Positions 913 to 27,309 of a DNA stretch of 32,000 nucleotides are shown here, one piece after another. Location: contig JASBSB010000003.1 in NCBI GenBank assembly GCA_030149205.1, forward strand, positions 441,710-473,709. The letters are read 5' to 3'. Made by a program: the position numbers and the translations under genes. Each line of letters opens with the position of its first letter. Position 1 is the first letter of the stretch. Below the pieces are notes generated by a model that ran no database searches, had not been told where the DNA came from, and saw only the letters and a list, made by a program, of their open reading frames with translations. The stretch comes from Candidatus Heimdallarchaeota archaeon (GTDB lineage: Archaea > Asgardarchaeota > Heimdallarchaeia > Heimdallarchaeales > Kariarchaeaceae).

Positions 913-1794
913 ATGTCAATTGATTTAGATCCTGTATTAGAGAAAAAACTTAGAGTTGCTCAACTTTTTGTTAGAGCTAAAAAGTATAGGGATGCAATCG
1001 AAACCTATCTAGAAATCACTGAGTCAGAACCTAACAAATCAGAATATTATAAGGTCATTGGAGAGCTGTATTACAACTCTTCTGATTATACTCAGGCTGA
1101 GTATTATTTTTCTGAGTCAATGAAACTTGGTTCAGATAAGGAGAACGAGCAGTTTTTGGCATTCTCCAAAATAATGCTCCATAAGTATAGAGAGGCAGAG
1201 GAGCTCTTGAGTAAAATTAATGAGAATGATGAATATCTCACGAACCTTATTGCAACCTTGAACCTTCTCACCTCAGAACCTGATGAACTTACAGACAAAC
1301 AGAAGGAGAGAATCTTAATGAAGGATCTGTTGGCAATGTATGAATTTAATCACAATCGACCATTGAGTTCAATAAGAATTGCCCATCAAATCGAATCTCG
1401 ATTAATTTCATACTACACACTTGGTGTTATATTTGCTAATATCAGAGATGAATCTTCAACTACAAAGGCAAACAAATATTTTCGATTAGCCTTAGCTATC
1501 TATGAAAAAGCAAAGCTTGATGAACCTACCTTTCTTAATAAAATCAAAATTGCTGTTGCAATAACAAACCAAAATATGGAAGAACGGAAGGTTGCATTAC
1601 AAAAGTTAATGCATCAAATAGATGATCCAGAGCTGTATTATGGGTATCTTCAAACACTGATTGAGTCAAAAAGCCCCAGTTCACAAATTTTAGAGACTAT
1701 AGAGAAGATGGAGGAATACAGAGGTGATGCTCCAGACCTGTTACGTTCAATTGATTTATGGATGGAAAGGACAAATGGAGGTGTCTTATATTGA
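913..1794 (+). CDS. Tetratricopeptide-repeat (TPR) protein
   Basis: TPR-like helical pairs, e.g. AQLFVRAKKYRDAIETYLEITESEP and YYKVIGELYYNSSDYTQAEYYFSESMKLG. The ORF track starts it at TTG 895. Confidence 0.8.
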   Translation: MSIDLDPVLEKKLRVAQLFVRAKKYRDAIETYLEITESEPNKSEYYKVIGELYYNSSDYTQAEYYFSESMKLGSDKENEQFLAFSKIMLHKYREAEELLSKINENDEYLTNLIATLNLLTSEPDELTDKQKERILMKDLLAMYEFNHNRPLSSIRIAHQIESRLISYYTLGVIFANIRDESSTTKANKYFRLALAIYEKAKLDEPTFLNKIKIAVAITNQNMEERKVALQKLMHQIDDPELYYGYLQTLIESKSPSSQILETIEKMEEYRGDAPDLLRSIDLWMERTNGGVLY

Positions 1795-4700
1795 AAGTCT
1801 GTTTAAATTGTGGACATAAAAGTTCTAAACCAATAAATTTTTGTTCAGTCTGTGGTTTTTCAATCATTGATGAGAACTTAGAGATTATTTGTGAAAAGTG
1901 TGGAGCTAAAAACCTTCTTTCCAGAACTTTCTGTTCTAACTGTGCTGCAAATATTGAGAAGGGGTATAAAATGAATCAAGCAAGACTTGAATCTCTAACC
2001 TCTAGAATCTTGGACCTCTCGATTAAGACAAATTCAATAGATAAAAGATTAAATCTATTAATTGAAGCTGCTAAATTAGGGAAGCTTAGTACCGATAGAG
2101 TTGATCTCTATGCACTTGGAAAACGTCAAGGTGAGGAAGCTCAGTTTCCACAAACTGGATCTAGTAAATCTACAACAAATGTTACATCTTCTGCAATTGA
2201 AGATATAAAAGGTGAAGATCCACACCATGCAGAAACATCCCAAACGGCAGTCCCTCAAGAAGTCAAAGCAGAAGGTACTAAGGCAGAAGATAGAGGAAGT
2301 ATCTATCAACAAACTAAATCTGACGCAATTCCAAGCTATGCAAAAATTGGGGACAATTCAACAAAGTCAGAGTTAACTGCATCTGAGGGCAATTTAAAGC
2401 GACCTAAGGAATCAACCATTGGTGAGACAACACCTGTCTCACCGTCCAAAATTTTTGAACAGAAACAAAAGTCTGAGATACAAGCTGACCTTCAAACTTC
2501 ATCTGTTGGTGATGTCCCTCTTGAATCTAAACCCAGTGTTGAGACAACAGAAAGAATTTCAGCTGAATCCCGAATTATCACAAATCCGACATTATCGATT
2601 AATAGGGAAGTTGGAGGATTAAAAAGAATTGTTCCTTCTTTTGTCAAACCTAAGTTTGATCTGAAGATCCCTATTACTCCTATCAAATCAGGAAGGACTC
2701 AACGCAGGTTTGACTTAAGCTCACCTAAAAAGTTGCTTAGTGACTTTGGTCAACAGATTCAAGTTGGGATTGCTGTTTCTCTACTCTTAGCAGGGTTAAT
2801 ATTTAGTTCATTCATTATAAGCTCTGATAAATTTGTTCAGAACACCATTCTATATAGTACTGGTTTACTTACAATAATTGGTGGACTACTTTTTGCTAAA
2901 TTATTTTGGAAGGATCAGGATAATTTACTTGGTAATACCTTAATTTCACTGGGTTATTTTTTGGCACTGTACAGTTCTTTTGGGACTGCTAATCAGTTAA
3001 ACGCAACAATTTTACCAATTCTTCCTACACTTTTGATCTTATTCTCTGCATTGTTACTAAATTCAGAGAGTCTGGCAGATATTTCTGTTCTGGGAACACT
3101 TTTTGCTGGTTGGATCGCATCTCAGACATTCATAGAATTAAGCTGGAACTTTGGGTCAACCTGGATAATTATGACTGTTCTAATTGCAACATTATTTTAT
3201 TTGAAAGACAAAATGATTCAACCTAGCATTTTAGCCTACTTTGGAGGGGCAATAATTAGTCTCTCATTGTTGTCCAATACACCTGCGACTGGAATGATTT
3301 CCCTGCCTATACTCATTTCAACTATTCCATTGGCACTAATTATCTTAAATCAGAGGTTAGATTTGCTGCCAAATATGATGAGAGCTCTATATGCGATTCT
3401 ATTAGGTGTTCCCTTTGTTGCCTTCCTTATTGGTGCAGCTACAGGTAAACTCAATCTATATGATGATGTCATCCTTTTCTCAATTATCGCAGTTTTAAGC
3501 ATTTTATTTGCAAATCCAAATCTATTGAAGAAAGAGGAAAACAGACTCTATAGCTTGCTTAACTTATCCTTGAACAAATACTCAAAAATATTTGTCCCAT
3601 TTGTTTCAATAATTTTTCTTAATCATATAATTGAAACTGTCAATCAATCATCAACTCAAATAGCTAGAATCGATTTTATTTTCTTCGTTATAACACCTAT
3701 AGTATTATTTTTCAGCTTAAACCTCTTGTTCTCAGTAGCCAGTACTTCTGAAGAAGTGAGAACTGAAGTTCAGTTGTTGAATTACATTCCAATTCTCATA
3801 ACTGAAAGCATTTTTTTCAGCCTTAGCTTAGGCTTATCAAGATTTGTGGGTAACCAATCTCTTGGTTACTTAGCAACGAGCTTCTATCTTATCCTTGTGT
3901 TTGTTCCACTGACCATTGGGATCCTAGGGGGTATCTTTGCCAAATACCTCAAGGTTACAGACAGAATAATGTTTGCAACCCAGGTGATGACAATGATAAA
4001 TACCATTTGGTTGAATTCTTACGTCCTAATCGGGGGTGATGCAGTTCTTGCATCATTGGCAGTATTCTTAACTTTCCTTCTTGCTTTATATTTACCAGGA
4101 ATATCAGATCTTTACAGAAAGAGAATTTATGCAATTTCACTTCTTGGTTCCTCAGTTTTGGTTTTATTAGGTCAACTGTATCACAGATTTGATCAATTTG
4201 AGAACCCTGGATTTATCTGGTATCTAAAGACAAACACCTTCTTAAAACTAGAGACATTTGGTCCACTTACAGTGCTGGCTTCTTTTGGTGTCATAGCTGG
4301 GCTAAGCCTGTTCAGACTCGTCAGGCTGGTAGAAAGGGGTCAGATTAGCAGAGAGGCGATCATAAATTCTTCAAATCCGTTTTTAAAGCTATATTATTAT
4401 TTTGAACGCTTCATCTTAAATCATCTTGAACAGCTGTTTTCTGCAGCCCTGAACTTTTCATTTATTGCAATATTATTGACTGGTGGTTTCAATTCACAGT
4501 CTACTACCTCAACAGTGGTTGCTTTTATAACAACACTTCTGACCCTTTCAAACGGCATAATTATATATCTCTCAAGAGGAAGAAGCTGGTTGTCATACAT
4601 CTTCACTGGTACAGCAATTGTCTTTAGCTCCATGTATATAGTTAATGCAGATTCATACCTGGTTATTCAGGGTAACATTGTACTTCTCTTCTTGCTAAGC

Positions 4701-7700
4701 TTTCTTATTATGAACTTTGAATCTCGTCGAAATATAGTTCAAAAAGCAGAAAGAGCACTAACCAGAGAATTTATCCTGGGAAGCACACTGTTAAGCTCAG
4801 TTATAGTAACTGGTTCTGCTTATTTGGATCCAACGCTGATTCTTGTGGCTACATTGGTGGTTTACTCCATGATACTGTCATTGAAGTACCACAATTCTTT
4901 CTTATCTGGGTTAGGGTTAATAGTTTACTCAGTGTTGTTCACTAAAGTTAACACCCAATTTACTACTAGTCTTCCCTACCCTCAATTATTCTACGTGTTG
5001 GCCTCGATAACATTGGTGCTTACCTTTGGGATATACCTGTACAGTCAAATAAGAGGTGAGGGGTTGAATGTGACACAATATGAGTTTATATCTAGGATGA
5101 CAAACCAATATCCTGCTCTTGACACTAAATTCTTCAGATCCATCCGTATAACCTTTCCTTTAATAGGGTTGCTAATGTTCAGCTATACACCTGATCTCAA
5201 TGTAACTTTTCAGGCTATCTGGATACTAATCTTAAGCATAACGCTAATTTTCTCAATTGAAAGTTCAGATTTTGACAGTAGGTTAGTTGGTCCAATTCTT
5301 ATATTGTACAGTCTGTTCCTATATCTAACATTTCAACCCACAGGGTTGGTCAACGGTTTGGTCTCTATTCTTGGGTATTTGCTCCTGGTAGGATATTTGA
5401 GCCTTAGAAATAACAGTGAGGAAAATTCAACCGAGAGAGATGTTGTGACCTTAGTTAACAACGTAATTCTAAGCTTAACTTTTATAGGAGCATTTCAGTT
5501 TCTATCAGCTGTCCCAGAATTACGAGGTTTGGTATTAGTTGTGTTGGCAACCATCCTTGGGTTGCACACCAAATCAATCCGACTGCACTCTCTACCTGTT
5601 GCATTGATGTTCCTGTTTAGTTACATAAATCCTCTTTATGTCCTGAATACTAACATCTTGAATTTTGGATATTTGATGATACAGAACAAAAGTTACACAC
5701 TTGAAGCAGTCAGGACACTCCCAATTTTGATATACGTATCACTTGTGTATCTAAGATCAATCAGGGATTCAAAATATGTATCTATACCAGTTTCGATTTC
5801 TGTTGGTATACTTTTTGTATCTGGGTTATTCACAGTTAATGGTGAATTAGGATTTGTATTCTTGGTTTCACTTTACGCTTCTTTACTTATTCTCGCCCTA
5901 CAAACTGAATTTATAGAGGAGCATATACTCAGTTCTCTTATCTTCATACTAGGAGTAACATTCGTAGGCGGAAGTGATATATTATTAGGTCAATTTGGAG
6001 CGGATCAAATCTTATTGTCCAACAGGATGATTGCTGCAACTGGGCTCTTATTGATAAATCTTATCATCTGGAAACATGCCGAGCTGAAATCTCTGTTTGA
6101 GATAAACCTAACGAAAATACCACTATCAATAGTATTTGCAGTGCTTGATGGGTATATCCTGTTTCTTGGATCGTTTTCATCATGGTTTTCTGCGGTTTAT
6201 GTGTTCACAACTATCATCCTCCTAAGTGTCGTAGACTTAAGACAAAACAGTAGATACATTGGAATTGGTTCTGGTTTGTTTGGATTAATAGTTTTATTAT
6301 CTGGAATGTTCATTATTCCATCAGACCACATTTTCAAAACTCTCCCAGGTAGTTTAGTTGGCCTTATAACTGGAATATCTGTTTTGGTCCTGATCTTCCG
6401 TTCGAGATTTGAGGAGCTGGAGCTATCGACAAGTCACTTTGAGATTGGAGGATTTATCTCACTGATCTCAGTTTTATCTCTGTCTGCTTTCTTCGGGTCA
6501 ACATTAGAATTTGCCATCCTTCAACTGGTCAGCTTATTTGTGTTGACCTATGTTAACTGGGCGATTAACAAGTACGAAATTTCAATGATAACTTCTATCG
6601 GCATCTCCCTGAACGTCTTTATTCAGCTTTTCGTTAATCCATTTGCCATAATCTCACTTTCTGTCTTTTTGATTAACCTAGTACTCTTCATGCTAAATCA
6701 GTTCACTGAGATCAACATCAAAGGAAACATGATAGGGATAATCACAGGATTTTCAGTTGTTGTTGGAGGGATTTTGTTTGGTAGTCAAAGTGGAGAACAA
6801 ATCATAGCACAGATCCCAGAACTGGTGACTTATGCTGGATTGTTTAATTATACTTGGATCATTCTCTTTTGGATGTGGATAGTTGACCTGTTAATTGCGA
6901 ACTTTGTTGGTAATCTCTTTGACGATAATTTTCTTGAGTCAATAGGAAATAGACTGAACATCCCAATTCAAGAGGGTCTCAGTAGGTTTACAATTGTTTT
7001 ATCAATAATCTTCCTAAACTATATTCCTGTTTTTCTCTTCTGGAGATTAAACTCACTTGAAAACACAGTATTTTTGCTTGGAAATGTTATAGTCTTTACT
7101 CTGATCTTTCTTTCATCATTAATCAAGAGAAAGGGAGAAGAAAATGTCAATCTATACATTGATATGATCACAATTACACCTGCGCTTTCAGGGTTTATCT
7201 TTTCAGTGTTTTTCATGAATATTCAACAACAGATATACAGTGGAAATCAAATAATTCAGTCCATTATATCCTTGGTTCTTCAGTATGCATATCTAGGAAT
7301 CAGCTCATTAGCAGTTTTGGCTGTTGTTTTCTTCTTTTTAAGAAACAGATCAGAAGACTTTGAGCACACCTCAACAAATATCTTACTTGATATTGGAACT
7401 TTCATCTCCTTGGCCTCATTATTTGTCCCGATACTGACAGGTAATTTCCAACCATTATTAGCTGTAACGGTACTATTTTGGATGCTGTTTATAACTGGAA
7501 GCGTGCAGGGAGGAAATAACGTTAAGATCAAGCAGGTTGTACAGCTGTTTGGTTCATTTGTCGCCTCTTATTTCTTCATTTATGCATTTCCAGTGCAGTA
7601 TGTTACTGTAAACTACAGTCACGGTGTGTCCCTGTTCTCAATTGCATCCCTAAGCCTAATTGCTAATGCCTTGGTTGCTTATGCCTACCTCCTTGTAGTT

Positions 7701-8159
7701 GGTGAGAATGTAAAGGAAAACATCAACTTTACCTTCTTGGCATATTTCAGAATAGTGATAAGCTTTCTTGCGATACTTCTTCTAAATGACTTCTCAACAC
7801 CTTTTGAAAGATTTGTGTCTCTCTCTGCCTATGTCTTATTGAGTGTGACAACCATGGGATATGGAGTCAAATATGAAATCTCTCCTATGAAAATGCTTGG
7901 GACTGCAATCATTTTTGCAGGACTCTTTATAGGTGGTGTATTCCTATTGACAAGTTACAGCAGTGGACAGCCAGTAGATCCTCTTCTTGCTGCTCTTACT
8001 TTCATCATCGGTGGTTTGGGCTTTCTTTACAATGTGTATCTACAGGATGCAGCTAAGAAAAACAAAAGGAACATCTTCATCTCAATGTTCATTCCAAAGG
8101 TCAGTGAGAGATCTGGTCAAAATGAGAAAACACTAAATGAGGAAACACTACCAGAATAA
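1791..8159 (+). CDS. Giant polytopic membrane protein with N-terminal double zinc ribbon; DUF2339-like membrane region
   Basis: Four CxxC pairs (nt 1800-1943), a coiled-coil, a long S/T/E/K/P-rich linker, then ~1800 aa of mostly hydrophobic helices. The likely start is TTG 1791: GGAGGTG SD at 1777-1783 and a TTGA overlap with the TPR stop. The ORF track starts it at 1758. The DUF2339 resemblance is by eye only. Confidence 0.85.
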   Translation: MKVCLNCGHKSSKPINFCSVCGFSIIDENLEIICEKCGAKNLLSRTFCSNCAANIEKGYKMNQARLESLTSRILDLSIKTNSIDKRLNLLIEAAKLGKLSTDRVDLYALGKRQGEEAQFPQTGSSKSTTNVTSSAIEDIKGEDPHHAETSQTAVPQEVKAEGTKAEDRGSIYQQTKSDAIPSYAKIGDNSTKSELTASEGNLKRPKESTIGETTPVSPSKIFEQKQKSEIQADLQTSSVGDVPLESKPSVETTERISAESRIITNPTLSINREVGGLKRIVPSFVKPKFDLKIPITPIKSGRTQRRFDLSSPKKLLSDFGQQIQVGIAVSLLLAGLIFSSFIISSDKFVQNTILYSTGLLTIIGGLLFAKLFWKDQDNLLGNTLISLGYFLALYSSFGTANQLNATILPILPTLLILFSALLLNSESLADISVLGTLFAGWIASQTFIELSWNFGSTWIIMTVLIATLFYLKDKMIQPSILAYFGGAIISLSLLSNTPATGMISLPILISTIPLALIILNQRLDLLPNMMRALYAILLGVPFVAFLIGAATGKLNLYDDVILFSIIAVLSILFANPNLLKKEENRLYSLLNLSLNKYSKIFVPFVSIIFLNHIIETVNQSSTQIARIDFIFFVITPIVLFFSLNLLFSVASTSEEVRTEVQLLNYIPILITESIFFSLSLGLSRFVGNQSLGYLATSFYLILVFVPLTIGILGGIFAKYLKVTDRIMFATQVMTMINTIWLNSYVLIGGDAVLASLAVFLTFLLALYLPGISDLYRKRIYAISLLGSSVLVLLGQLYHRFDQFENPGFIWYLKTNTFLKLETFGPLTVLASFGVIAGLSLFRLVRLVERGQISREAIINSSNPFLKLYYYFERFILNHLEQLFSAALNFSFIAILLTGGFNSQSTTSTVVAFITTLLTLSNGIIIYLSRGRSWLSYIFTGTAIVFSSMYIVNADSYLVIQGNIVLLFLLSFLIMNFESRRNIVQKAERALTREFILGSTLLSSVIVTGSAYLDPTLILVATLVVYSMILSLKYHNSFLSGLGLIVYSVLFTKVNTQFTTSLPYPQLFYVLASITLVLTFGIYLYSQIRGEGLNVTQYEFISRMTNQYPALDTKFFRSIRITFPLIGLLMFSYTPDLNVTFQAIWILILSITLIFSIESSDFDSRLVGPILILYSLFLYLTFQPTGLVNGLVSILGYLLLVGYLSLRNNSEENSTERDVVTLVNNVILSLTFIGAFQFLSAVPELRGLVLVVLATILGLHTKSIRLHSLPVALMFLFSYINPLYVLNTNILNFGYLMIQNKSYTLEAVRTLPILIYVSLVYLRSIRDSKYVSIPVSISVGILFVSGLFTVNGELGFVFLVSLYASLLILALQTEFIEEHILSSLIFILGVTFVGGSDILLGQFGADQILLSNRMIAATGLLLINLIIWKHAELKSLFEINLTKIPLSIVFAVLDGYILFLGSFSSWFSAVYVFTTIILLSVVDLRQNSRYIGIGSGLFGLIVLLSGMFIIPSDHIFKTLPGSLVGLITGISVLVLIFRSRFEELELSTSHFEIGGFISLISVLSLSAFFGSTLEFAILQLVSLFVLTYVNWAINKYEISMITSIGISLNVFIQLFVNPFAIISLSVFLINLVLFMLNQFTEINIKGNMIGIITGFSVVVGGILFGSQSGEQIIAQIPELVTYAGLFNYTWIILFWMWIVDLLIANFVGNLFDDNFLESIGNRLNIPIQEGLSRFTIVLSIIFLNYIPVFLFWRLNSLENTVFLLGNVIVFTLIFLSSLIKRKGEENVNLYIDMITITPALSGFIFSVFFMNIQQQIYSGNQIIQSIISLVLQYAYLGISSLAVLAVVFFFLRNRSEDFEHTSTNILLDIGTFISLASLFVPILTGNFQPLLAVTVLFWMLFITGSVQGGNNVKIKQVVQLFGSFVASYFFIYAFPVQYVTVNYSHGVSLFSIASLSLIANALVAYAYLLVVGENVKENINFTFLAYFRIVISFLAILLLNDFSTPFERFVSLSAYVLLSVTTMGYGVKYEISPMKMLGTAIIFAGLFIGGVFLLTSYSSGQPVDPLLAALTFIIGGLGFLYNVYLQDAAKKNKRNIFISMFIPKVSERSGQNEKTLNEETLPE

Positions 8160-8241
8160 TTTGGAGTAACTAATGCGTGTATAGACTATCACAAAATATT
8201 AATTCAATTTCAAGAGAGTTTCAATTGAAGAAGGTGAAAAT

Positions 8242-9249
8242 GTGTTAGAAGATGATTTAAAGGAGAGGTTACTCAGACATGATCCAAATGGAGTGCCTGA
8301 GGCTATTGCACTCCTCCTGTCTGATAACACAGAAAGTAAGGCTGAGTTAATTGGATTTATTTTAAGAAACAATCTCACAGAGTTCCTGGATGATCTAATC
8401 AATGTTGGGGTTGTGGATGAGGAGAAATCCATTCGAGCCATGGCTATCATGGCAGTTGCAAAATTGGGGAACAGAAGTAATGCAACTGACCTCTTAGATG
8501 CAATCTCGCTTGAATCCGATGAAGAGACACTAATGTCAATGATCGAAAGCTTCATCCTGTTTGCTGAGATTAATGACCTGAAAATTGAAGAGCTTGAACA
8601 GTTACTCGAAGTATTACCAATCGAAAGGATCTCAAGTCTACAGAATGCAACCCAATCGAGAATTGAGATGAAGGAAAAGCCTGATCCCCTAAAAATAAGC
8701 TTACCATTACCCCAGGATCAGGATGAAATTGTGGACTTCTTTGTGGATAACAGTGCGACACAAAAACATGTAGGGAAACTTGAGGATCAGATTGCAGAAG
8801 CAAAGGCAAAAATCAAATTGATTCTGTTGGATCTCGAGCCAAATATCCCTGTCAGCATCTACAGGCTTGCAGAACTGTCTAACACAACCCCGTACTCATT
8901 GGAAAGATATCTTATAGAATTAACTGAGGATGGAACCCTAACAGGAGAATACCTCGAGCTTGAACAGATGTTCATTAAAGGAAGACAGACAACATCTGCA
9001 CTATTAGGAAACATCCCCACAAAGGGACCCCCTCTCTGTTCTGATTGCGGTTCTCCCTCAAGATCATTTCCCTGTGAAAACTGTGGAGGAGGGATACAGT
9101 GTGGTACTTGCAAGCTACTTATTGGAAAGGGAGAAGATATAATTGAATGCCCGGATTGTGGTTCTAAAAACCACAGAACTCATCTCCTTGAATGGCTGAA
9201 AATCAGAGGTGTCTGTCCCATTTGTAAACGGAAAATTCAAATTAAGTAA
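8242..9249 (+). CDS. HEAT-like / winged-helix (PCI-like) / zinc-ribbon / RING-variant protein, putative E3 ligase
   Basis: Helical N-terminus (IRAMAIMAVAKLG), a wH-like segment (VSIYRLAELSNTTPYSLERYLIELTEDGTLTGEY), CSDC-x8-CENC, and C-x2-C-x12-C-x2-C-x4-H-x2-H-x3-W-x6-C-x2-C at the C-terminus. GTG start with GGTGA upstream. Confidence 0.8.
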   Translation: MLEDDLKERLLRHDPNGVPEAIALLLSDNTESKAELIGFILRNNLTEFLDDLINVGVVDEEKSIRAMAIMAVAKLGNRSNATDLLDAISLESDEETLMSMIESFILFAEINDLKIEELEQLLEVLPIERISSLQNATQSRIEMKEKPDPLKISLPLPQDQDEIVDFFVDNSATQKHVGKLEDQIAEAKAKIKLILLDLEPNIPVSIYRLAELSNTTPYSLERYLIELTEDGTLTGEYLELEQMFIKGRQTTSALLGNIPTKGPPLCSDCGSPSRSFPCENCGGGIQCGTCKLLIGKGEDIIECPDCGSKNHRTHLLEWLKIRGVCPICKRKIQIK

Positions 9250-9471: not shown

Positions 9472-10329
9472 TTATTCTACAAAATGAATCTCATAGGTCT
9501 TTTCTGCAAGAAGGGAATATTCATTTAAAATGATTTGATCTTGAATTACATCTATCTCATAAAGAAAAAACCTGAAGAAAATATTGAAATTGTCTGTAAT
9601 GCCATATTCAATAAGTAGATTCAAAATCCGTTTGTTTGTTTTTCCTTTAAGCAACAACGTTGGTAAGATAAATTGATGAAGACTAAAAGAGGACCTTTTG
9701 TTACCATGAGAAGCAAATTTTGCCTCTAGGGCTATCACTAGATTTTCGGATTCTATAAAATTATCTACTTCAATTTGGGCCTTGACGGGGATTTCTCTTA
9801 TTTTGTTGTCTTTGCCATCTCTGTACAATAATCCTAATTTTCCTTCAACAGTAGTGTTTAACCTTCCACCAATTGTAAAATTCTCAGTCAATCCTAAATA
9901 TTCTTGAACGAATTTCGAAAACAGATTTAATTCATTAGCTAAAATTATACCAGTTTCTTCATTGTGAAGAGTAAAATGTTTTAATACAGAAATTTTATCT
10001 ATTCGACTTATGTTCAATGTTACTTTTGAAACCTTTGGGTTTTTAAGACTTGGGAAAAGCGTTTTTAATGAAAATTTCTTAGTTTTAATCAGAACACATC
10101 CCCCTAATTGGTTTCTAAACAATTCGACCCCATTTTCTTTTAAAACATCTGGAAGCTCTGAATATCTATAAGTGGGTATCATCTTTACTGGTTTTACACC
10201 TAGATATTTGAAATCAGTTGAGAATAGTTGATATATTACCTCTTCGTCATCATTAAGCCAATTTTGCAGCTTTTTTGAGCTAGGACCTTCATTAAATAGT
10301 TTTATCCAATTTTTATTTCTTTTACTCAA
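9472..10329 (-). CDS. PD-(D/E)xK restriction-endonuclease-like protein (resembles DUF6996/DUF6997 family)
   Basis: Catalytic-type motif QIEVDNFIE...IALEAK followed by LHQFILP. The N-terminal KMIPTYRYSELPDVLKENG segment resembles the family from memory. TTG start. Confidence 0.65.
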   Translation of the reverse strand: MSKRNKNWIKLFNEGPSSKKLQNWLNDDEEVIYQLFSTDFKYLGVKPVKMIPTYRYSELPDVLKENGVELFRNQLGGCVLIKTKKFSLKTLFPSLKNPKVSKVTLNISRIDKISVLKHFTLHNEETGIILANELNLFSKFVQEYLGLTENFTIGGRLNTTVEGKLGLLYRDGKDNKIREIPVKAQIEVDNFIESENLVIALEAKFASHGNKRSSFSLHQFILPTLLLKGKTNKRILNLLIEYGITDNFNIFFRFFLYEIDVIQDQIILNEYSLLAEKTYEIHFVE

Positions 10330-11716: not shown

Positions 11717-12733
11717 ATGAATTTAGATGAAAATTTAATATATTCTAACCAGAATTTAAATACCTTCAAAAGTCCAACAATGAACTTAACAATAGAAATG
11801 ACAGTTTCTATCATCATGCCCACCTACAATGGACAGCGATTCTTACGTGAGACACTTGACTCCATACTCCGACAGACTTATCGGGACTGGGAGCTTATCG
11901 TGTGCGACGATAAATCTACAGATAACACTGTTGAGATAGTTCAGGAGTATGCCAATAATCATGAGCAGATACACCTTCATAGGTTTGAGCATTATGGGAA
12001 TCCTGCAGTTCTCCGTAACAAGGGAATAGAGCTTGCCAAGGGTAAATACATAGCACTATGCGATCAGGATGACCTGTGGGCTGAGAACAAGTTAGAGTTA
12101 CAGGTAAGTATAATGAAGGACACAGGTAAGTCTAACATCAAATTCGTTTCTGGAGCCAGTTCAATAATTAATTCTGAGGGTACCGTGATTCAAGGTGGAA
12201 AAAATACAGTCTTCGATCTTGCTGTAAAGAAGGCTCAAGATTTAGGGGGTTGTGTTATCATCCCCCCGATGTATTTAATCCTGGGAAACTTCATCATGAA
12301 TTCCTCAGTATTAATATCAAGAGACATCTACAATACCATTGGATTTTACAAGGAAGATCAATCATACAGAGGAATAGAGGATTATGAATTTATCCTGAGA
12401 TACTTATCCTCAGGATACAAAATTTGTTTTATCAAAGAACCTATAGCTTACTGGAGACAACATGAATCAAACCTTACAAAGGATGTTCAGTCAAGTCAAA
12501 GGTTAGAGATAATCCTTAGTGAAATTCTGGAGGCCTTAAAATCAGATTCATTCAAGGAACACCAAAAATGGCTTCTGATACAGCAAAGAATCAGTTATCT
12601 ACAGATGGAGATAGCAAGATCAAGGTATTCTGAAAGCCCCTCCCAAACAAGAAAAATTATGAAGTTTTACAAAAAACAGAGGTTCAGATTCTACAAATTG
12701 CTAGGAAAGCTAAGCAAGACCGCAATTTATTGA
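11717..12733 (+). CDS. Glycosyltransferase family 2
   Basis: SIIMPTYN, VCDDKSTD, ALCDQDDLW (DxD) and IEDYEF motifs. The true start may be 11798 (MTVSIIM). Confidence 0.92.
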   Translation: MNLDENLIYSNQNLNTFKSPTMNLTIEMTVSIIMPTYNGQRFLRETLDSILRQTYRDWELIVCDDKSTDNTVEIVQEYANNHEQIHLHRFEHYGNPAVLRNKGIELAKGKYIALCDQDDLWAENKLELQVSIMKDTGKSNIKFVSGASSIINSEGTVIQGGKNTVFDLAVKKAQDLGGCVIIPPMYLILGNFIMNSSVLISRDIYNTIGFYKEDQSYRGIEDYEFILRYLSSGYKICFIKEPIAYWRQHESNLTKDVQSSQRLEIILSEILEALKSDSFKEHQKWLLIQQRISYLQMEIARSRYSESPSQTRKIMKFYKKQRFRFYKLLGKLSKTAIY

Positions 12734-12744
12734 TTTTTTTTTTT
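12734..12744 (+). terminator. Oligo-T tract, possible archaeal terminator
   Basis: 11 consecutive T directly after the GT2 stop codon. Confidence 0.4.
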
Positions 12745-12846
12745 ACCCGAAGATTAACTGCTCTCAGAGCAAATTTGGTATCCAAACAAAAAATAATCTT
12801 TCTCAGCCCGATTGGTAATCAATCAGCTTTTTAATACAATCATAAA

Positions 12847-13428
12847 TTGAAAACTATGGTTGAATTTCTCAAACCAGAATCTGAGGTAAAATCCAAGGTC
12901 ATGCTGAACCTCGGAAGTGGGACGGATATCCGTCAAAACTGGATCAATGCAGATATCGCCAAAATAGACGGACTGGATTTTGTCATAGACATCGAATCTG
13001 AAGAACTCCCCCTCGATGACGGTTCAATCAGCCTTATACTCCTTTCACATGTGATCGAGCATGTTGACAACATCAGGCATCTGCTCAATGAGATATTTCG
13101 GGTGCTAAAACCTGGTGGAAAGCTATACATAATCGTCCCCGCCTTTTCTTCAAATGGGGCATTCCAAGACCCAACCCATGTGAGATTCTTCACTGATGAG
13201 ACATTCAAGTACCTTAGTGGAGAGTATTTCGACTACTACTTTGGGAACGTGGGACAGAGGGCTAAGGTTGTTTTATTAAAAAGAAGAAGAACAAGCTATT
13301 ACAATCAACTCTACAGATATTTCTCTCCCATCATAAGATTGATCGGAAAGAGAAGGTTCGACAACTATGTGGATAATCTCTTTCTGAACATGACAAAAGA
13401 ATATCATGTGATTATAGAAAAACTCTAA
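12847..13428 (+). CDS. Class I SAM-dependent methyltransferase (glycan-cluster type)
   Basis: LNLGSG motif I, SHVIEH, RVLKPGG and AFQDPTH motifs. Alternative ATG at 12856. Confidence 0.88.
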   Translation: MKTMVEFLKPESEVKSKVMLNLGSGTDIRQNWINADIAKIDGLDFVIDIESEELPLDDGSISLILLSHVIEHVDNIRHLLNEIFRVLKPGGKLYIIVPAFSSNGAFQDPTHVRFFTDETFKYLSGEYFDYYFGNVGQRAKVVLLKRRRTSYYNQLYRYFSPIIRLIGKRRFDNYVDNLFLNMTKEYHVIIEKL

Positions 13429-13529
13429 ATTAAGTAAATATTTTTGATCTATTAAAATTCAAAAGATGAAAGTTTATGGATAAAGTAGGGGGAGAGGGCT
13501 AAATGTCTCTGCATTAGAAGATTTTTTGG

Positions 13530-14432
13530 TCAAAATTTACCTTGGCTCCTCTTCTCATCCTCTATTTCATCTACTATATCAAGGAGATACTGACCATAGG
13601 GGGAATTTTTTTGTCCCTCAGCCAGCTTCAGATACTGCTCCTTGCTGATGAAACCCTTTCTGAATGCTATCTCCTCAATGGCTGACACATAGAAACCCTG
13701 CTGATTCTGAATCGCCTCAATAAAATTGCTTGCTTGTAACAGACCTGTGGGGGTTCCTGCATCGAACCATGCGATTCCCCTTCCAAGCTTAATAGCGTGT
13801 AACTCCCCAATTTTGAGATATTGATCGTTCACACTGGTGATCTCAATTTCACCTCTATCGCTTGGTTCGACATTCATTGCTATCTCAGATACACGATTGT
13901 CATAGATGTACAGACCTGGAATGATATAGTTAGACCTGGGATTGGCGGGTTTCTCCTCAACTGATAAAACCTTTCCAGATTTATCAAATTCCACAACCCC
14001 AAAGGGTTTTGGATTCTTTACATAATACCCAAAAATTGTTGCTCCCGTTGAAAAATCCTTAACAGTTTTGTTTACCAGTTCGCCAAAATTTGCACCATAA
14101 AATATGTTATCCCCCAGTATCATCATAACATCATCTTCCCCGATAAACTCCTTTCCCACAATGAAAGCATCTGCTAAGCCCCGAGGTGTGTCTTGGTTCT
14201 TATACGAAATCTGAACACCATAGGCAGAGCCATCACCCAACTGGTTTTTATACAAGTCTAGATGGTCTGTACTGGATATTACAAGAATCTGTTTGATCCC
14301 TGCCAACATCAACACGGAAAGAGGGTAATAAACCATAGGCTTATCAAAAACTGGCAAGAGCTGTTTACTTAATACTGTAGTTAATGGGTAAAGTCTGGTT
14401 CCTTTACCCCCAGCAAGGACAATTCCTTTCAT
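13530..14432 (-). CDS. rmlA: Glucose-1-phosphate thymidylyltransferase
   Basis: MKGIVLAGGKGTRLYPLT, KQLLPVFDKPMVYYPLS, RGEIEIT and WFDAGT motifs. Confidence 0.97.
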   Translation of the reverse strand: MKGIVLAGGKGTRLYPLTTVLSKQLLPVFDKPMVYYPLSVLMLAGIKQILVISSTDHLDLYKNQLGDGSAYGVQISYKNQDTPRGLADAFIVGKEFIGEDDVMMILGDNIFYGANFGELVNKTVKDFSTGATIFGYYVKNPKPFGVVEFDKSGKVLSVEEKPANPRSNYIIPGLYIYDNRVSEIAMNVEPSDRGEIEITSVNDQYLKIGELHAIKLGRGIAWFDAGTPTGLLQASNFIEAIQNQQGFYVSAIEEIAFRKGFISKEQYLKLAEGQKNSPYGQYLLDIVDEIEDEKRSQGKF

Positions 14433-14540
14433 AATCCCGAATAATCTTTAAAAATATTAATGATTTGCATCAAATCTAAGATTAGTCAATAATTATTCTA
14501 AGGACTAGAACTTTATTAAAATACTATAATTTCACAATTT

Positions 14541-15401
14541 GTGGATATACTCCTGTTAGGTGCTGAAGGTCAACTTGGAAGAGAATTTAAATCACTTCTA
14601 AATTCAAACAACCTGAAATTTCAAACATACAGCCATAATGATCTGGATATAACAAATCATGAAAGTGTGAGAGAACTCTTTAAGAATAACAAGTTAAAAC
14701 TTATCATTAACACAGCTGCTTATAATTTAGTAGACAGAGCAGAAGACAACCCATATCTAGCAGTGGAGGTAAATCACAAGGCAGTTGAGAATTTGGCATT
14801 GTTATGTTCCAAAAATAGTGTGTTTCTCATCCATTTTTCAACAAACTATGTATTTGATGGCACCAGCCTTGAACCTTATAAAATCAATGATCCCCCTAAT
14901 CCTCTGTCAGTATATGGAAAATCCAAATATATGGGAGAAAAAGCTATTTTACAAAACATGGACAAGAATTTTTTGATTGTTAGAACAAGCTGGGTTTTTG
15001 GTCTTGGACCACAGAATTTTATATACAAATTATTAAATTGGGCAAAAGACAACTCCACCTTAAAAATAGTTGACGATGAAATCGCAGCTCCAACATCTAC
15101 ATCTGACTTAGCTAAGGCAACTTTTGAACTTTACAGTTCAGGATTATCAGGGTTATATCACATCACCAATCGAGGGAATTGCTCTAGGTTTAAGTGGGCA
15201 GAGCTGATATTAAACGAGATTAAATGGACCGGTGAACTCAAACCTACAAACTTAAGTAACTTTGGATTAAAAGCTAAAAGACCACATAGAGCAATACTTG
15301 ACATTTCAGAGCTTCCTAAAGAAATTCATTCTAACCTAAAATCATGGGAAGATGCGACTACTATAGCTGTAAAAAGAATAAATCAAAATCAGATTATTTG
15401 A
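14541..15401 (+). CDS. rmlD: dTDP-4-dehydrorhamnose reductase
   Basis: GAEGQLG, NTAAYNLVDRAE, HFSTNYVFDG, YGKSK and VRTSWVFG motifs. GTG start. Confidence 0.95.
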   Translation: MDILLLGAEGQLGREFKSLLNSNNLKFQTYSHNDLDITNHESVRELFKNNKLKLIINTAAYNLVDRAEDNPYLAVEVNHKAVENLALLCSKNSVFLIHFSTNYVFDGTSLEPYKINDPPNPLSVYGKSKYMGEKAILQNMDKNFLIVRTSWVFGLGPQNFIYKLLNWAKDNSTLKIVDDEIAAPTSTSDLAKATFELYSSGLSGLYHITNRGNCSRFKWAELILNEIKWTGELKPTNLSNFGLKAKRPHRAILDISELPKEIHSNLKSWEDATTIAVKRINQNQII

Positions 15402-15589
15402 GTCTTAAATTTGAAGTAAAATTCCTGAGTATCATGAAGTCTAAATGTTGAAACTCATAAACTCTACATTTTGAAACTTATGTCCCTACGAAAATAAAAA
15501 TTCCCTTTAGATAATTTGTTACGTAGGGCATTAAAAATCCTCAAATCGAAGCTTATGGTTAAAATGTGTGAAGAGAATCTCAAAATTAT

Positions 15590-16141
15590 TTATTCAAAAA
15601 GGTCTTTCTGTTCTGCCAGCATTGGTGCTCTCTTATCCTTTGATGATACAATAGGAGAAGAAATGCTCCAGTTAATTTTTAAGACTGGATCAGCCCAATG
15701 AATTGACCTCTCATGACGTGATGAATATTCAGAGGTAGTGAAGTACTGAACCACTGTCTGATCAACCAAACTCAAGAACCCATGACCAAAACCTTCTGGT
15801 ATCCAATACAACTCTCTACTTTTATCATCCAAATAAACTCCCACTGATTTTCCAAAGGTGGGTGAACTTTGTCTTAAATCTACTGCCACATCATAAATCT
15901 TTCCTCTCAGAACTGAAATGAGCTTTCCCTGAGCTTTCGGAGGTATCTGATAATGGATTCCACGTAATACATACTTTTTAGAAAGAGAAATATTTGATTG
16001 GAAAACATTTAATTTTATGTTGTGATTGGAAAAATCAGAAAATTTGAAATTTTCAAGAAAATATCCCCTCTCATCCTTGAAAAATTTTGGTTCTATGAGA
16101 ATTAAATCTTCAATTGCTTGAGGCTTAAATTCAAATGGCAT
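15590..16141 (-). CDS. rmlC: dTDP-4-dehydrorhamnose 3,5-epimerase
   Basis: DERGYF, VLRGIHYQ, DVAVDLRQSSPTFG and WIPEGFGHGF motifs. Confidence 0.97.
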   Translation of the reverse strand: MPFEFKPQAIEDLILIEPKFFKDERGYFLENFKFSDFSNHNIKLNVFQSNISLSKKYVLRGIHYQIPPKAQGKLISVLRGKIYDVAVDLRQSSPTFGKSVGVYLDDKSRELYWIPEGFGHGFLSLVDQTVVQYFTTSEYSSRHERSIHWADPVLKINWSISSPIVSSKDKRAPMLAEQKDLFE

Positions 16142-16479
16142 ACTTTATCTTACGGTTTCAAGTTTTAACACTTTCAACACAAATTTGGACAAATTAATAT
16201 GAAATTACAGTCCGCTAGACAACCTGACAGATAAAATTCATTAACGGATATTGAATAAAGATCCTAAATATCCACACAAAAAATTTACACTAAGCAAATA
16301 TCGAAGCGTAACATAGGGATTAAAGTCTCATTAGAACTTAACATACATTGTTAGAATTTAATAATTATCATCATCAGAGGTTCTTGTTCTCTCGTTATTA
16401 TAGCTTATTGATATGTATTTTCCTTTTATCCTCATAAATGAGTATGATTTTTCTCTTGAAACCAAATTGATTCTAAATT

Positions 16480-17493
16480 TTAATGAGGAGGTTTATCATC
16501 AAATTTCTTGAGATACCAATCAACTGTCTGATTTAATCCAACATCAAAACTAGTCTCAGCTTGCCAACCTAATTTATTCCGAATTTTTGTTGAATCAATT
16601 CCATATCTTCTATCATGTCCTAATCTGTCAGAAACATGCTCAATTAACGTCTCATTTATCATCGGGTCATCTAGTTTTTGACTCAGAATTTGAAGTAATT
16701 TCTTAGTCAAGGATATGTTATTCCACTCATTATTCCCACCTATGTTGTAGATATCACCCAAAGTTCCATTTTTATGAACCATGTCTATCGCTTTACAATG
16801 ATCCTGAACATACAACCAGTCTCTTATCTGTTTCCCATCACCATAAATTGGGATAGGTTGATGATTTATTGCACGAGAGATTATTTTCGGTATCAGTTTC
16901 TCTAAATGTTGGTGTGAACCATAATTGTTTGAACATCTTGTAATCATCCCCGGAAATTCATAAGTGTCAACAAACGCTTTTACCATAAGGTCTCCAGAGG
17001 CCTTGCTTGCTGAGTATGGACTGTGAGGATCAAGAGGAGAATCTTCTGTAAACAGACCAACCCTTTCTAATGATCCATATACCTCATCTGTAGAAATTTG
17101 TACAAACCGCGCACCTTCAAGCCACTTTTGATTGATTAACCAGTATTTTTTCGCTACTGTTAGCAAATTGAGAACTCCTAGGATATTAGTTTCAGCAAAA
17201 ATCTTGGGTTCTTCTATTGAGTTATCAACGTGAGTTTCTGCAGCAAAATTAACAACTGACTTGATGTCATACTTGGTAAATATATAATCTAGGAGTTCAA
17301 AATTTTGTAAATCACCTTTTATGAATTCGAGTCTATCTTTGTTTTCAATCATTATTTTCTTAAGTCCCTTCTTATCAGCTGCATATGTGAACTTATCCAG
17401 GCCGATTATTTGTTCTTCGGGATATGTGTTAAAGTAATACTCTAGAAAATTAATACCAATAAACCCAGCTACTCCCGTGATTAAAATACTCAT
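16480..17493 (-). CDS. rmlB: dTDP-glucose 4,6-dehydratase
   Basis: ITGVAGFIG, FAAETHVDNSI, QISTDEVYG, PYSASKAS, RCSNNYG and RLGHDRRY motifs. The start is placed at ATG 17493; the ORF track uses 17532. Confidence 0.97.
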   Translation of the reverse strand: MSILITGVAGFIGINFLEYYFNTYPEEQIIGLDKFTYAADKKGLKKIMIENKDRLEFIKGDLQNFELLDYIFTKYDIKSVVNFAAETHVDNSIEEPKIFAETNILGVLNLLTVAKKYWLINQKWLEGARFVQISTDEVYGSLERVGLFTEDSPLDPHSPYSASKASGDLMVKAFVDTYEFPGMITRCSNNYGSHQHLEKLIPKIISRAINHQPIPIYGDGKQIRDWLYVQDHCKAIDMVHKNGTLGDIYNIGGNNEWNNISLTKKLLQILSQKLDDPMINETLIEHVSDRLGHDRRYGIDSTKIRNKLGWQAETSFDVGLNQTVDWYLKKFDDKPPH

Positions 17494-18003
17494 TATTGAA
17501 AGAGGAATTGATAAATATATTAATTCAATCATAAAAATTTGTTATAGCATACATTTTTCAATTCGAGCTGGATATAAATTGTATTTGAATATTTATTCTA
17601 AGAAAATTTGTTCTCCAAATTGTGATATATTTATTTACATACTTTAACTCACTAATTTGTAGTTTTGTTTGAGAATATTAAGGAATTTCAGTTTGTGAAA
17701 CTATGTAAAAATAGAAATGAAAAATCAGATCAATTTGAAAAATATAATTTAAATGTGGACTTTAAAGAAAACTAATTCAATTAACATCGTGAATTTTTAG
17801 TTATTCCTATGATGAAAAAAAAGAAAATACTTTAAATAGTAGACCTTTTTGGCCCTAAACTTGTTGTTTACCTTATTTCAACTCATTTTTAAGTTACTAA
17901 ATTTGACAAAAGATATTTTATTGAAAAAAATAAAGGCATTCATACAAATAATATAATAAAAACACTGACTTGAAAACTCAATAAAATATGCATATTTGTA
18001 CAA

Positions 18004-20128: not shown

Positions 20129-21112
20129 TTAAACTAAGAATTCCTCAATTTTTTCATCCTTTAAATCATTTTCTAAATACATCTTTTCATAGTATTTTAT
20201 TGTACTTTTTAATCCATCATTTAATTTTGTTTTTGCTCGAAATCCAAATTTTTCATAAGCTTTAGTAGTATCTAACATCCTAATAGGTTGACCATCAGGT
20301 TTTGATTTATCCCAATTTATGACTCCATCAAACCCTGTGAGGTTTTTTATCAATTCAACTAGTTCTTTAATTTTAATTTGTTCACTTGATCCAATGTTTA
20401 TAGGGTCTATTTCGTTGTATAGTTCAGTAGCTTCTAAAATGGCTTCAGCAGCATCTTTTACGTAAATAAATTCTCTAGAAGCCGTACCGGTACCCCAAAC
20501 ATTTATGTATTTTTTTCCGAGCTCCTTAGCAAGGATACATTTTCTAATCAAAGCTGGAATTACGTGGGAAGAATTTAAGTCAAAGTTATCCCCCGGACCA
20601 TAAAGATTAACCATTAAGAGATGAATTCCTTGAAATTTATACTGATTAGCGTAAGCTTGAGTTTGAACCAACATCATCTTTTTTGCTAATCCATAAGGTG
20701 CATTGGTCTCTTCAGGATATCCATTCCATAAATCTTCTTCCTTAAAAGGTATAGGACAAAATTTGGGGTATGAACAAACTGTACCAATTCCGACAAATTT
20801 TTTAACGTTATTTATATACGATGTATGAACAAGATTTAAATTAATCATTGCGTTATCATAAAAAAACTCACCAGGATAATTTCGATTAGATCCAATACCA
20901 CCCATTTTTGCTGCCATATGAATTACAATTTCAGGTTTAGTTTTATCAAAGAGTTCAATTGCTTCAGATTGGATTCTCAAATCAAATTCCTTAGAAGATG
21001 GTGTTATTAAATTTGAATAACCATATTGTTTAAATTTTTCGACAACATGTTTTCCGAGAAAGCCATGAGCTCCAGTTAATAATACTTTTGAATTTTTAAA
21101 GGATGAAATCAT
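20129..21112 (-). CDS. fcl: GDP-L-fucose synthase
   Basis: TGAHGFLG, AAKMGGIG, GTVCSYPK, YPEETNAPYGLAKK, NLYGPGDNF and WGTGTASREF motifs. Confidence 0.95.
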   Translation of the reverse strand: MISSFKNSKVLLTGAHGFLGKHVVEKFKQYGYSNLITPSSKEFDLRIQSEAIELFDKTKPEIVIHMAAKMGGIGSNRNYPGEFFYDNAMINLNLVHTSYINNVKKFVGIGTVCSYPKFCPIPFKEEDLWNGYPEETNAPYGLAKKMMLVQTQAYANQYKFQGIHLLMVNLYGPGDNFDLNSSHVIPALIRKCILAKELGKKYINVWGTGTASREFIYVKDAAEAILEATELYNEIDPINIGSSEQIKIKELVELIKNLTGFDGVINWDKSKPDGQPIRMLDTTKAYEKFGFRAKTKLNDGLKSTIKYYEKMYLENDLKDEKIEEFLV

Positions 21113-21207
21113 ATAATTTAAATTGTTAAACCTCCTTATAATTTTTCAGATTAAGTAAGATTAAAATTTCTTTATATTACAAGAACTCAACAAAGCAGTA
21201 GAAGATT

Positions 21208-21885: not shown

Positions 21886-21986
21886 AATTAAAACAAATAA
21901 TTTCGCTTAAATATTTTGTGGTGACTAAAAAACAAGGTAATAAATTTACGACAAATTTTATTTGCGTGTATAAAATTAATTTGATT

Positions 21987-22757: not shown

Positions 22758-22924
22758 CCTTGTGTAAATTCAATATTCTATTGATACAATTATAATATCA
22801 TGAAAATCACAAAATTTAACATTTGAGTTTAAATAATTGATAATTTATTAATTAATTAAATATTTAATGTTGGTTTTAGGTTATCCTGAAAAACCTTGAA
22901 TATGATTTATATAAAATATTATTT

Positions 22925-23641: not shown

Positions 23642-23650
23642 AAAAAAAAT

Positions 23651-25399: not shown

Positions 25400-25403
25400 T
25401 GAA

Positions 25404-26126: not shown

Positions 26127-26167
26127 TTTTCTTTAAATGATCAGAAAAAAATTTATAGATCCTTAAA

Positions 26168-27265: not shown

Positions 27266-27309
27266 TAAATGAATAAAAGATTTAAAAAGTTTTTTTTGTA
27301 CTTAAGGCT

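Follow-up and report, generated by a model that had tools for sequence, protein, structure and literature searches.

A lineage-restricted three-gene operon of one Heimdallarchaeia family as a candidate membrane-associated RING-type ubiquitin ligase module

Asgard archaea carry ubiquitin (Ub), E1, E2, RING proteins and ubiquitin-binding parts of ESCRT (endosomal sorting complexes required for transport). Soluble helical-repeat E3 ligases are known, i.e., CHIP, in which tetratricopeptide repeats (TPR) are joined to a U-box, and Listerin/Ltn1, in which HEAT/ARM repeats are joined to a RING. In this study, a stretch of 32,000 nucleotides from a Candidatus Heimdallarchaeota archaeon (assembly GCA_030149205.1, contig JASBSB010000003.1, positions 441,710 to 473,709 of the forward strand; the whole stretch is called the window, and positions follow its numbering) was analysed. 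The subject is a set of three adjacent genes at 913-9249, which encode a TPR-like protein, a giant membrane protein and a HEAT/RING protein.

For archaeal ligases, a small-RING E3 of Caldiarchaeum subterraneum was reconstituted (PMC5654768). In one survey, E3 genes were counted through a single InterPro entry only, with RING families lying outside it, and no membrane-acting ligase is named (PMC9192718). For the giant membrane protein, the closest described system is Arc3A (PA5114) of P. aeruginosa, a very large polytopic DUF2339 protein with 35 transmembrane (TM) helices and no catalytic residues. Arc3A shields Pseudomonas from a phospholipase toxin by preventing lysophospholipid accumulation, and the mechanism is unknown (PMC8926400).

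The three genes form a lineage-restricted operon of one Heimdallarchaeia family, and this operon is tentatively proposed to be a membrane-associated RING-type ubiquitin ligase module. It is the favoured explanation, held with slightly less than even confidence. No description of the operon was found in full-text literature searches. The combination of parts and the giant family appear undescribed in the searchable literature, and each domain is of a known kind.

Structure and conservation of the three-gene operon

By ORF (open reading frame) reading and translation, the three co-oriented ORFs at 913-9249 on the + strand are real. The features of the transcription unit are as follows.

883-889, + strand: TATA-like box TTATAAA, about 25 nucleotides 5' of the gene 1 ATG, read from the sequence
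913-1794, + strand: gene 1, TPR-like helical-repeat protein of 293 amino acids, ATG 913 to TGA 1792-1794
1776-1782, + strand: Shine-Dalgarno-like GGAGGTG for the gene 2 start
1791-8159, + strand: gene 2, giant polytopic membrane protein of 2122 amino acids, TTG 1791 start in a TTGA overlap with the gene 1 stop
8230-8237, + strand: Shine-Dalgarno-like GAAGGTGA upstream of gene 3
8242-9249, + strand: gene 3, soluble HEAT/possible winged helix/zinc ribbon/RING protein of 335 amino acids, GTG 8242 start
9472-10329, - strand: convergent gene for a DUF6997 protein (E 7e-11), which closes the operon

The box at 883-889 may serve as an archaeal promoter, from which the transcript would be leaderless or carry a short leader. 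For gene 2, TTG 1791 was preferred over ATG 1758 because the orthologues begin with M-K-x-C, two residues before the first zinc-ribbon Cys. No stretch of five or more consecutive T occurs in the spacer at 8160-8241 that separates genes 2 and 3, and transcription may read through it into gene 3. The unit ends with gene 3, because the next gene is convergent. A first-pass annotation of the window had described three co-oriented genes with a TTGA overlap, a Shine-Dalgarno sequence and an 82-nucleotide spacer, all of which were recovered. Its polytopic protein of about 2100 amino acids with a double zinc ribbon was also found (2122 amino acids, at least 44 TM helices, Pfam DZR and Zn_Ribbon_1). 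Of its helical-repeat/winged-helix/zinc/RING protein, the repeats (HEAT), the zinc ribbon and the RING ligands stood, and the winged helix is doubtful.

The arrangement of the trio recurs in 10 further loci, which come from related organisms and are not independent. The loci with the window were as follows.

Full trio of TPR, giant and RING genes: window, G001:C43, G002:C374, G003:C6 and L066 (Logan contig)
Giant and RING genes, 5' end cut or shortened: G008:C522, L059, L060 and L067
TPR and giant genes, 3' end cut: L061
TPR and giant genes followed by a CBS-domain gene, no RING gene: L058

The RING gene lay 3' of the giant gene in 9 of the 10 loci with a visible 3' end, and a TPR-like gene lay 5' of it in 7 of the 8 loci with a visible 5' end. 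Stop/start overlaps of 1-31 nucleotides between genes 1 and 2 were the rule, and each of the five full trios has one. Most loci show an overlap or a 2-nucleotide gap between genes 2 and 3, and spacers of 82 and 94 nucleotides were found in the window and L059, respectively. The trio is therefore read as a unit coupled for the most part in translation. The gene order was kept despite strong divergence, i.e., orthologue identities of 17-23% for the TPR protein, 18-24% for the giant protein and approximately 35% for the RING protein, compared with 49-55% for a benchmark ThiF domain in the same genomes. Judged from the sequences, chance adjacency of the trio genes is excluded. Conservation of the neighbourhood, which the first-pass annotation had put forward as a check, was therefore borne out, and the trio is syntenic beyond the window.

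In locus L059 (255-4841), the giant member has 1528 amino acids and lacks the zinc-ribbon head, the tether and approximately the first ten TM helices. The TPR gene is absent upstream and the RING gene is kept downstream. A truncated variant or an artefact of assembly may explain this. In L058, an Arf/Roc-type small GTPase gene (2056-2670) and a gene for a 308-amino-acid leucine-rich-repeat protein (4023-4949) are located upstream, the latter directly before the TPR-giant pair, and three small genes, one with an ACT domain, lie between them. The GTPase/leucine-rich-repeat set could provide alternative cytosolic partners.

The distribution was narrow. A search of 1.84 billion representatives with a profile of the giant core gave 10 proteins. 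The giant profile matched 6 of the 11 other genomes of the GTDB family of the window and 0 of the 71 genomes in the six other families of the class, and the absences come from incomplete metagenome-assembled genomes and are not proof of absence. The HEAT-RING form was seen only at giant-gene loci among the matches listed. Among the same matches, no fusion of HEAT-RING with the TPR or giant protein was found, which is weak evidence. The window RING protein was nearer to that of another genus, G008 (E 1.5e-54), than to those of three congeners (E 1e-29 to 1e-35). The window giant protein was also nearer to G008 and L059, of the other genus, than to the three congeners G001, G002 and G003. Within the genus, giant identity was 21-24%, compared with ThiF identities of 53-55% for two congeners and 35% for the third, G002. 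The closeness to another genus suggests two old subtypes, replacement or fast evolution.

This pattern brings in a conflict or defence role. The operon would be an accessory system in which a fast-evolving, patchy membrane sentinel responds to virus, toxin or membrane attack with RING-dependent ubiquitylation, an idea that overlaps with the proposed ligase module. The patchy occurrence, the divergence far above the housekeeping benchmark and the affinity to G008 fit such a role, as do the low-guanine-cytosine (GC) surface-glycan island that adjoins the operon and the fact that Arc3A itself is a defence factor. However, no mobile-element genes were present among the flanking genes examined, and a single benchmark gene is a thin basis for fast evolution. 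Beyond a weak HyoA match in the HEAT region (E 0.005), no known defence domain was found with Pfam/NCBIfam, and PADLOC models were not searched. A defence role is considered unlikely, and the ligase module is kept as the favoured explanation.

The TPR-like and HEAT/RING proteins and the host ubiquitin system

The gene 3 protein (P0003) has neither a TM helix nor a signal peptide, and its parts are as follows.

8242-8616, + strand: HEAT-repeat domain, residues 1-125 (AlphaFold2, Foldseek, and Pfam in an orthologue)
8839-8991, + strand: possible winged-helix segment, residues about 200-250, with the invariant motif G-E-Y-x-x-L-E-Q-x-F-I
9037-9084, + strand: zinc ribbon, C266-x2-C269...C278-x2-C281, the four Cys invariant in 5 orthologues
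9100-9228, + strand: RING finger of a C4H2C2 variant, with ligands C287, C290/C303, C306/H311, H314/C325, C328

The HEAT part was modelled by AlphaFold2 as paired helices, with a local confidence score (pLDDT) of 80-92 for residues 1-120. Foldseek with this domain retrieved HEAT/alphaRep proteins at probability 1.0, and HEAT_2 (PF13646) matched orthologue P0010 at 32.5 bits, above the cut-off of 27.7. With stacked hairpins and a family model match, the protein belongs to the HEAT-repeat group. For the winged-helix segment, the matches were weak (HTH_Crp_2 E 0.06, PCI E 0.22), the model confidence there was low, and the segment is absent from orthologue P0030. A single-sequence search with P0003 in a collection of 5.8 billion proteins returned only itself, and the relatives came through genome and profile searches. 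A language-model look-up scored 0.78 for the RING protein, which is a lead only.

The RING ligands are spaced as C287-x2-C290-x12-C303-x2-C306-x4-H311-x2-H314-x10-C325-x2-C328, in a cross-brace. The eight ligands, W318 and P326 are invariant in 5 orthologues, and the ligand pattern is also present in P0028 and P0030. The residue after the last ligand is the linchpin position of active RINGs, and 6 of 7 members have Lys or Arg immediately behind the last Cys (K329 in P0003). A profile of the last approximately 80 residues, built from five orthologues, was compared with solved structures, and RING-H2 E3 ligases ranked first, i.e., RNF126 (E 2.6e-4), then RNF24, EL5, RNF38 and Arkadia. The RINGs of GATOR2 and Listerin (E 0.098) were among the weak matches. 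In the HMMER alignment to RNF126, W318 fell on the RING-H2 Trp, H311 on the His ligand, H314 on the ligand-6 Cys, and C325-P326-x-C328 on the final C-P-x-C pair. In orthologue P0030, zf-RING_2 (PF13639) was matched at 28.5 bits, above the cut-off.

The same C4H2C2 RING was found in a 690-amino-acid protein elsewhere in the host genome (G000:C7:264934-267006; L063:2935-5007), which has tandem PCI-like winged helices (PCI at 27.5 bits, above the cut-off) and a double zinc ribbon. ORFs of approximately 690-700 amino acids ending in this RING were found in most genomes of the order searched.

In the gene 1 protein (P0001), seven TPR-type Pfam models matched residues 19-110 with E 3e-5 to 0.02, all below the cut-off, the strongest being TPR_2 (E 3e-5) and ANAPC3 (5.5e-5). 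Positional orthologues of 270-323 amino acids were found at 6 other loci, with weak or faint TPR matches. No signal peptide, TM helix or hydrophobic segment was found in the P0001 translation, and the protein is read as cytosolic because it has neither signal peptide nor TM helix. Its amphipathic N-terminal helix, with a basic/hydrophobic motif, is kept in all orthologues. In L058 and L061, this motif is encoded in frame upstream of the called TPR starts. The idea that the TPR protein of L058, the RING-less locus, lacks the helix was ruled out in this way, as the upstream frame encodes the same basic motif.

A contact between the two proteins was predicted by complex modelling, a check that the first-pass annotation had proposed. 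The job had four chains, i.e., the TPR protein, the N-terminal head of the giant protein, its last two TM helices with the tail, and the HEAT domain as the scored partner. The TPR/HEAT score was 0.62 (runs 0.62, 0.68 and 0.40), compared with 0.00 for the best of three controls. Of 80 solved complexes, 58 came up to the mark for this score, and of 110 mismatched pairs, 2 did so; these counts apply only roughly to a job with four chains and custom alignments, which is unlike the calibration. The contact agreement between runs was at least 66%, the partner pLDDT was at least 77, and swapping out the TPR chain abolished the score. The confident contacts listed join HEAT residues 18-26, 51-58 and 90-92 with residues 7-24 of the TPR chain. 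Whether the latter are ORF or chain numbers is ambiguous, and either way they fall in the N-terminal helix before the first repeat. The predicted interface includes the invariant HEAT residue L25 and the conserved basic/hydrophobic TPR helix. All confident contacts listed involve the TPR chain, and the job is uninformative on the two termini of the giant protein. The modelling supports a direct pair of the TPR and HEAT-RING proteins.

A ubiquitin system was found in the host genome. A ubiquitin-fold gene (G000:C2:577139-577318) is directly followed by an E1-like ThiF gene (C2:577361-578083), and a second ThiF protein and three UQ_con (E2-like) matches above the cut-off (C8:171738-172109, C8:40543-40773 and C2:503008-503256) were detected, all outside the window. 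The first-pass annotation had noted the lack of Ub, E1 and E2 genes in the window and had named a host lacking Ub or E2 as an objection. The former observation is correct, and the objection falls away with the ubiquitin, E1 and three E2-like proteins encoded elsewhere in the genome.

Several results weigh against a ligase module. No Ub, E1, E2, Cdc48 or proteasome gene is adjacent to the trio. For E2 contact, Ile, Val or Leu sits between ligands 1 and 2 in most active RINGs, and here Thr is invariant at this position in five aligned orthologues (Val in P0030); in RING-E2 structures, the E2 is contacted through this position, the Trp, the Pro and the basic residue. In P0003, zf-RING_2 reached 21.0 bits, under the cut-off of 27.3, and the RING portion of the AlphaFold2 model is unreliable (pLDDT approximately 45). 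In L058, a CBS-domain gene takes the place of the RING gene. Because this locus keeps the TPR and giant genes with no adjoining RING gene, the RING is dispensable or encoded elsewhere in at least one lineage.

The giant membrane protein and the possible roles of the operon

The regions of the giant protein (P0002) are listed below.

1800-1943, + strand: double zinc ribbon, the cytosolic N-terminal head (Pfam DZR at residues 15-62, and Zn_Ribbon_1)
1971-2747, + strand: coiled-coil-like helix, then a low-complexity tether of about 210 amino acids rich in K/S/T/E/P, which precedes the first TM helix (translation)
2763-8039, + strand: TM region with at least 44 hydrophobic helices and mostly short loops (hydropathy scan; predicted helical-hairpin array)
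4569-4766, + strand: most conserved patch, with an R-G-R-x-W loop plus R999/R1003 (from the alignment of ten family members)
8040-8159, + strand: basic juxtamembrane segment and C-terminal tail (alignment of 9 C-termini)

DZR was matched in 6 of 6 family members with an intact N-terminus (best E 2.9e-7), and the first ribbon Cys is invariant in the orthologue alignment. The coiled-coil-like helix aligns across orthologues, and the tether is probably disordered, as judged by its composition. In the hydropathy scan, the first TM segment is at residue 336, with none earlier. At least 44 helices were counted, and the overall estimate is approximately 50 membrane-spanning helices. The collinear orthologues have 1950-1993 amino acids. 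Among 10 giant-family members, R940, W944, R999 and R1003 are invariant, and E891, D988 and W1008 are near-invariant. In the C-terminal tail, a semi-conserved hydrophobic-x-Pro motif (F/I-L/F-x-x-F-x-P-x-E/K) was found.

Residues 600-1350 were modelled by AlphaFold2 as an all-helical hairpin array (pLDDT 66.5, pTM 0.64). The conserved patch residues lie in short loops and helix ends of one shared membrane face in this model, and the face is taken as cytosolic because it is Arg-rich (positive-inside rule). Chunk-versus-chunk profile comparison gave probabilities below 8% for internal repeats. No Pfam family beyond the zinc ribbons was found in P0002 and 9 relatives. Foldseek with the model against the PDB gave nothing at E <= 0.001, and no membrane protein was matched. 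VIA-align gave solely designed or soluble helical repeats, with Z up to 17.8, within the expectation for helical repeats. In the Atlas shape search, the best predicted-shape match was a DUF2339 cluster (97% PF10101), with TM-scores of 0.54/0.42 (0.54 by query) over 533 residues and a root-mean-square deviation of 6.0, a comparison that is prediction on both sides, with a query pLDDT of 66.5. The language-model look-up gave scores up to 0.89, with 0.83 for the DUF2339 family, which are leads only.

Sequence membership in DUF2339/PF10101 was ruled out, with no match up to E = 10 in the own genome and none in 10 family members. Among 81 Asgard genomes, PF10101 had two sub-threshold matches only, located elsewhere. 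The relation of the giant protein to DUF2339/Arc3A is a resemblance in predicted shape, not a family assignment.

In the favoured explanation, the TPR-like and HEAT/RING proteins would form a cytosolic subcomplex, in which the N-terminal TPR helix docks on the HEAT domain. This subcomplex would act at or on the giant protein, pictured as a DUF2339/Arc3A-like array of approximately 50 TM helices that bears its zinc-ribbon head on a long tether in the cytosol and has a single strictly conserved Arg/Trp patch on the membrane face. Through the RING, one of the E2~Ub conjugates of the host would be recruited. Its targets may be the cytosolic parts of the giant protein itself, for control of its abundance, or proteins gathered there.

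The shape resemblance to DUF2339 also opens a ligase-independent explanation, i.e., a complex for membrane homeostasis or protection. The giant protein would act in the manner of Arc3A and limit lysophospholipid build-up, with the TPR and HEAT/RING proteins in structural or regulatory roles and the RING as a zinc-stabilised interaction module. The Arc3A precedent agrees with this, i.e., a 35-TM DUF2339 protein without catalytic residues that guards against a phospholipase toxin (PMC8926400), as do the nearest predicted shape and the weaker language-model lead. A role for the invariant Arg/Trp patch at a membrane face could be the binding of lipid head groups. The locus with no RING gene (L058), the Thr in place of the usual hydrophobic E2-contact residue, and the weak matches to GATOR2 RINGs, which are used for assembly, point the same way. 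However, PF10101 was matched by sequence in 0 of 10 members, and the shape match, in which both partners are predicted helical-hairpin arrays, may be a generic one. The conserved E2-contact Trp, Pro and Lys/Arg would be superfluous in a finger with a purely structural role, and the full Ub/E1/E2 set of the host also argues against this explanation, which is rather doubtful.

A further explanation goes back to the first-pass annotation, in which the three genes were compared with endoplasmic-reticulum-associated degradation (ERAD). The operon would be a quality-control or retrotranslocation machine, with the giant protein as conduit or platform, the TPR protein as substrate adaptor, and the RING tagging clients for extraction and degradation. 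The parts list of Hrd1/Hrd3 is present in outline (polytopic body, helical-repeat protein, RING), the operon is conserved, and the host has a ubiquitin system. However, neither the Pfam and NCBIfam models nor the fold comparisons tied the giant protein to Hrd1, Doa10 or derlins, and the RING belongs to another protein, which is soluble. The TPR protein, taken as cytosolic, is a predicted HEAT-domain binder, which differs from the luminal Hrd3. It would hold the RING protein rather than receive substrate. No Cdc48 or proteasome gene is linked, and occurrence in one family of the class only is hard to square with a core quality-control role. The analogy gained no specific support, and an ERAD-like machine is very improbable.

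A more specific form of the ligase module can be drawn. The TM array of the giant protein may be a sensor or sink of membrane or lipid damage, and TPR-HEAT-RING may be its ubiquitin-ligase output, by which the giant protein or nearby membrane proteins are tagged for removal by the Asgard ubiquitin-ESCRT or Cdc48/proteasome pathways. This is quite unlikely as it stands. If true, an E3 coupled to the membrane would for the first time be placed upstream of these archaeal pathways, with an origin independent of ERAD.

The operon has meaning beyond this form. In this concrete and conserved candidate, a RING protein is genetically tied to one membrane protein, and the predicted adaptor contact is open to mutation. 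The operon is testable in vitro, as the host components are identified, and it offers another way into the unexplained class of DUF2339/Arc3A-like proteins, which have several dozen TM helices. Because of the narrow distribution, its weight for eukaryogenesis is limited. The module is a lineage-specific invention and not an ERAD ancestor, because it is confined to one Heimdall family.

Neighbouring genes and comparison with known systems

Divergent from gene 1, a gene for a 365-amino-acid protein lies at 3-671 of the window on the - strand (full gene L057:7284-8381, G000:C7:441283-442380). The protein has a single TM helix at its N-terminus, and also a low-complexity linker, a zinc ribbon and another RING-like finger. 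This finger matched zf-RING_2 with E 1.9e-4, below the cut-off, and has Glu at the sixth-ligand position. The gene was considered as a fourth component of the module and was ruled out, as unrelated genes are found there in other loci.

On the other side, a surface-glycan island covers 11717-17532 and 20129-28365, with a low GC of 0.25-0.31. It includes GT2 and methyltransferase genes as well as the following.

13530-14432: RmlA
14541-15401: RmlD
15590-16141: RmlC
16480-17532: RmlB-like dehydratase
26168-27265: DegT aminotransferase
27310-28365: protein of the GDP-mannose-dehydratase family (PF16363 NDP-sugar 4,6-dehydratase)

Compared with known systems, ERAD (Hrd1-Hrd3, Doa10/MARCH6) is alike by analogy only, i.e., in a polytopic component, helical repeats and a RING within one unit. 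The ERAD RING is within the membrane protein and the Hrd3 repeats are luminal, whereas in the operon the RING sits on a soluble protein and a cytosolic location is assigned to the TPR protein. Neither in sequence nor in fold does the giant protein resemble the membrane components of ERAD. With CHIP and Listerin/Ltn1, a helical-repeat recognition domain combined with a C-terminal E2-recruiting finger is shared. However, TPR and HEAT-RING are here two proteins that are predicted to bind each other, with no homology beyond generic domains and no chaperone or ribosome link.

Arc3A is alike in its exceptionally many packed TM helices, short loops, lack of obvious catalytic residues and adjoining partner gene. 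The giant protein is archaeal and approximately twice as long, carries a cytosolic double zinc ribbon, a coiled coil and a long tether, and has no PF10101 match. Its partners are the TPR and HEAT-RING proteins, in contrast to Arc3B, which is restricted to Gram-negative bacteria and has a predicted N-terminal outer-membrane anchor.

The RING-H2 E3 ligases (zf-RING_2; RNF126, RNF38, Arkadia and EL5) resemble the gene 3 RING in the eight cross-brace ligands, the Trp after the sixth ligand, C-P-x-C at ligands 7-8 and the basic residue after ligand 8. With the Caldiarchaeum subterraneum system, the likeness is a eukaryote-like Ub/E1/E2 set in the host. In place of the C3H2C3 of RING-H2, the finger here is C4H2C2, with ligands 3-4 from C-x2-C rather than C-x-H and His as ligand 6. 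Thr stands for Ile/Val/Leu between ligands 1-2, and P0003 is below the Pfam cut-off. Unlike both RING-H2 ligases and the Caldiarchaeum system, gene 3 has a zinc ribbon before the RING and a HEAT fusion, and its operon is shared with a giant membrane gene instead of Ub, E1 and E2.

The Asgard family of approximately 690-amino-acid winged-helix RING proteins (G000:C7:264934-267006) has the same zinc ribbon and C4H2C2 RING, with the signature H-L-x-x-W-L-K/R-I...C-P-x-C-K. Its members have tandem winged helices, whereas the gene 3 protein has HEAT repeats; they occur in nearly all genomes of the order, and the one in this genome is not beside a giant membrane gene. As far as the sequences indicate, the C4H2C2 finger is part of a wider Asgard RING family, in which the HEAT-bearing form alone is tied to the operon.

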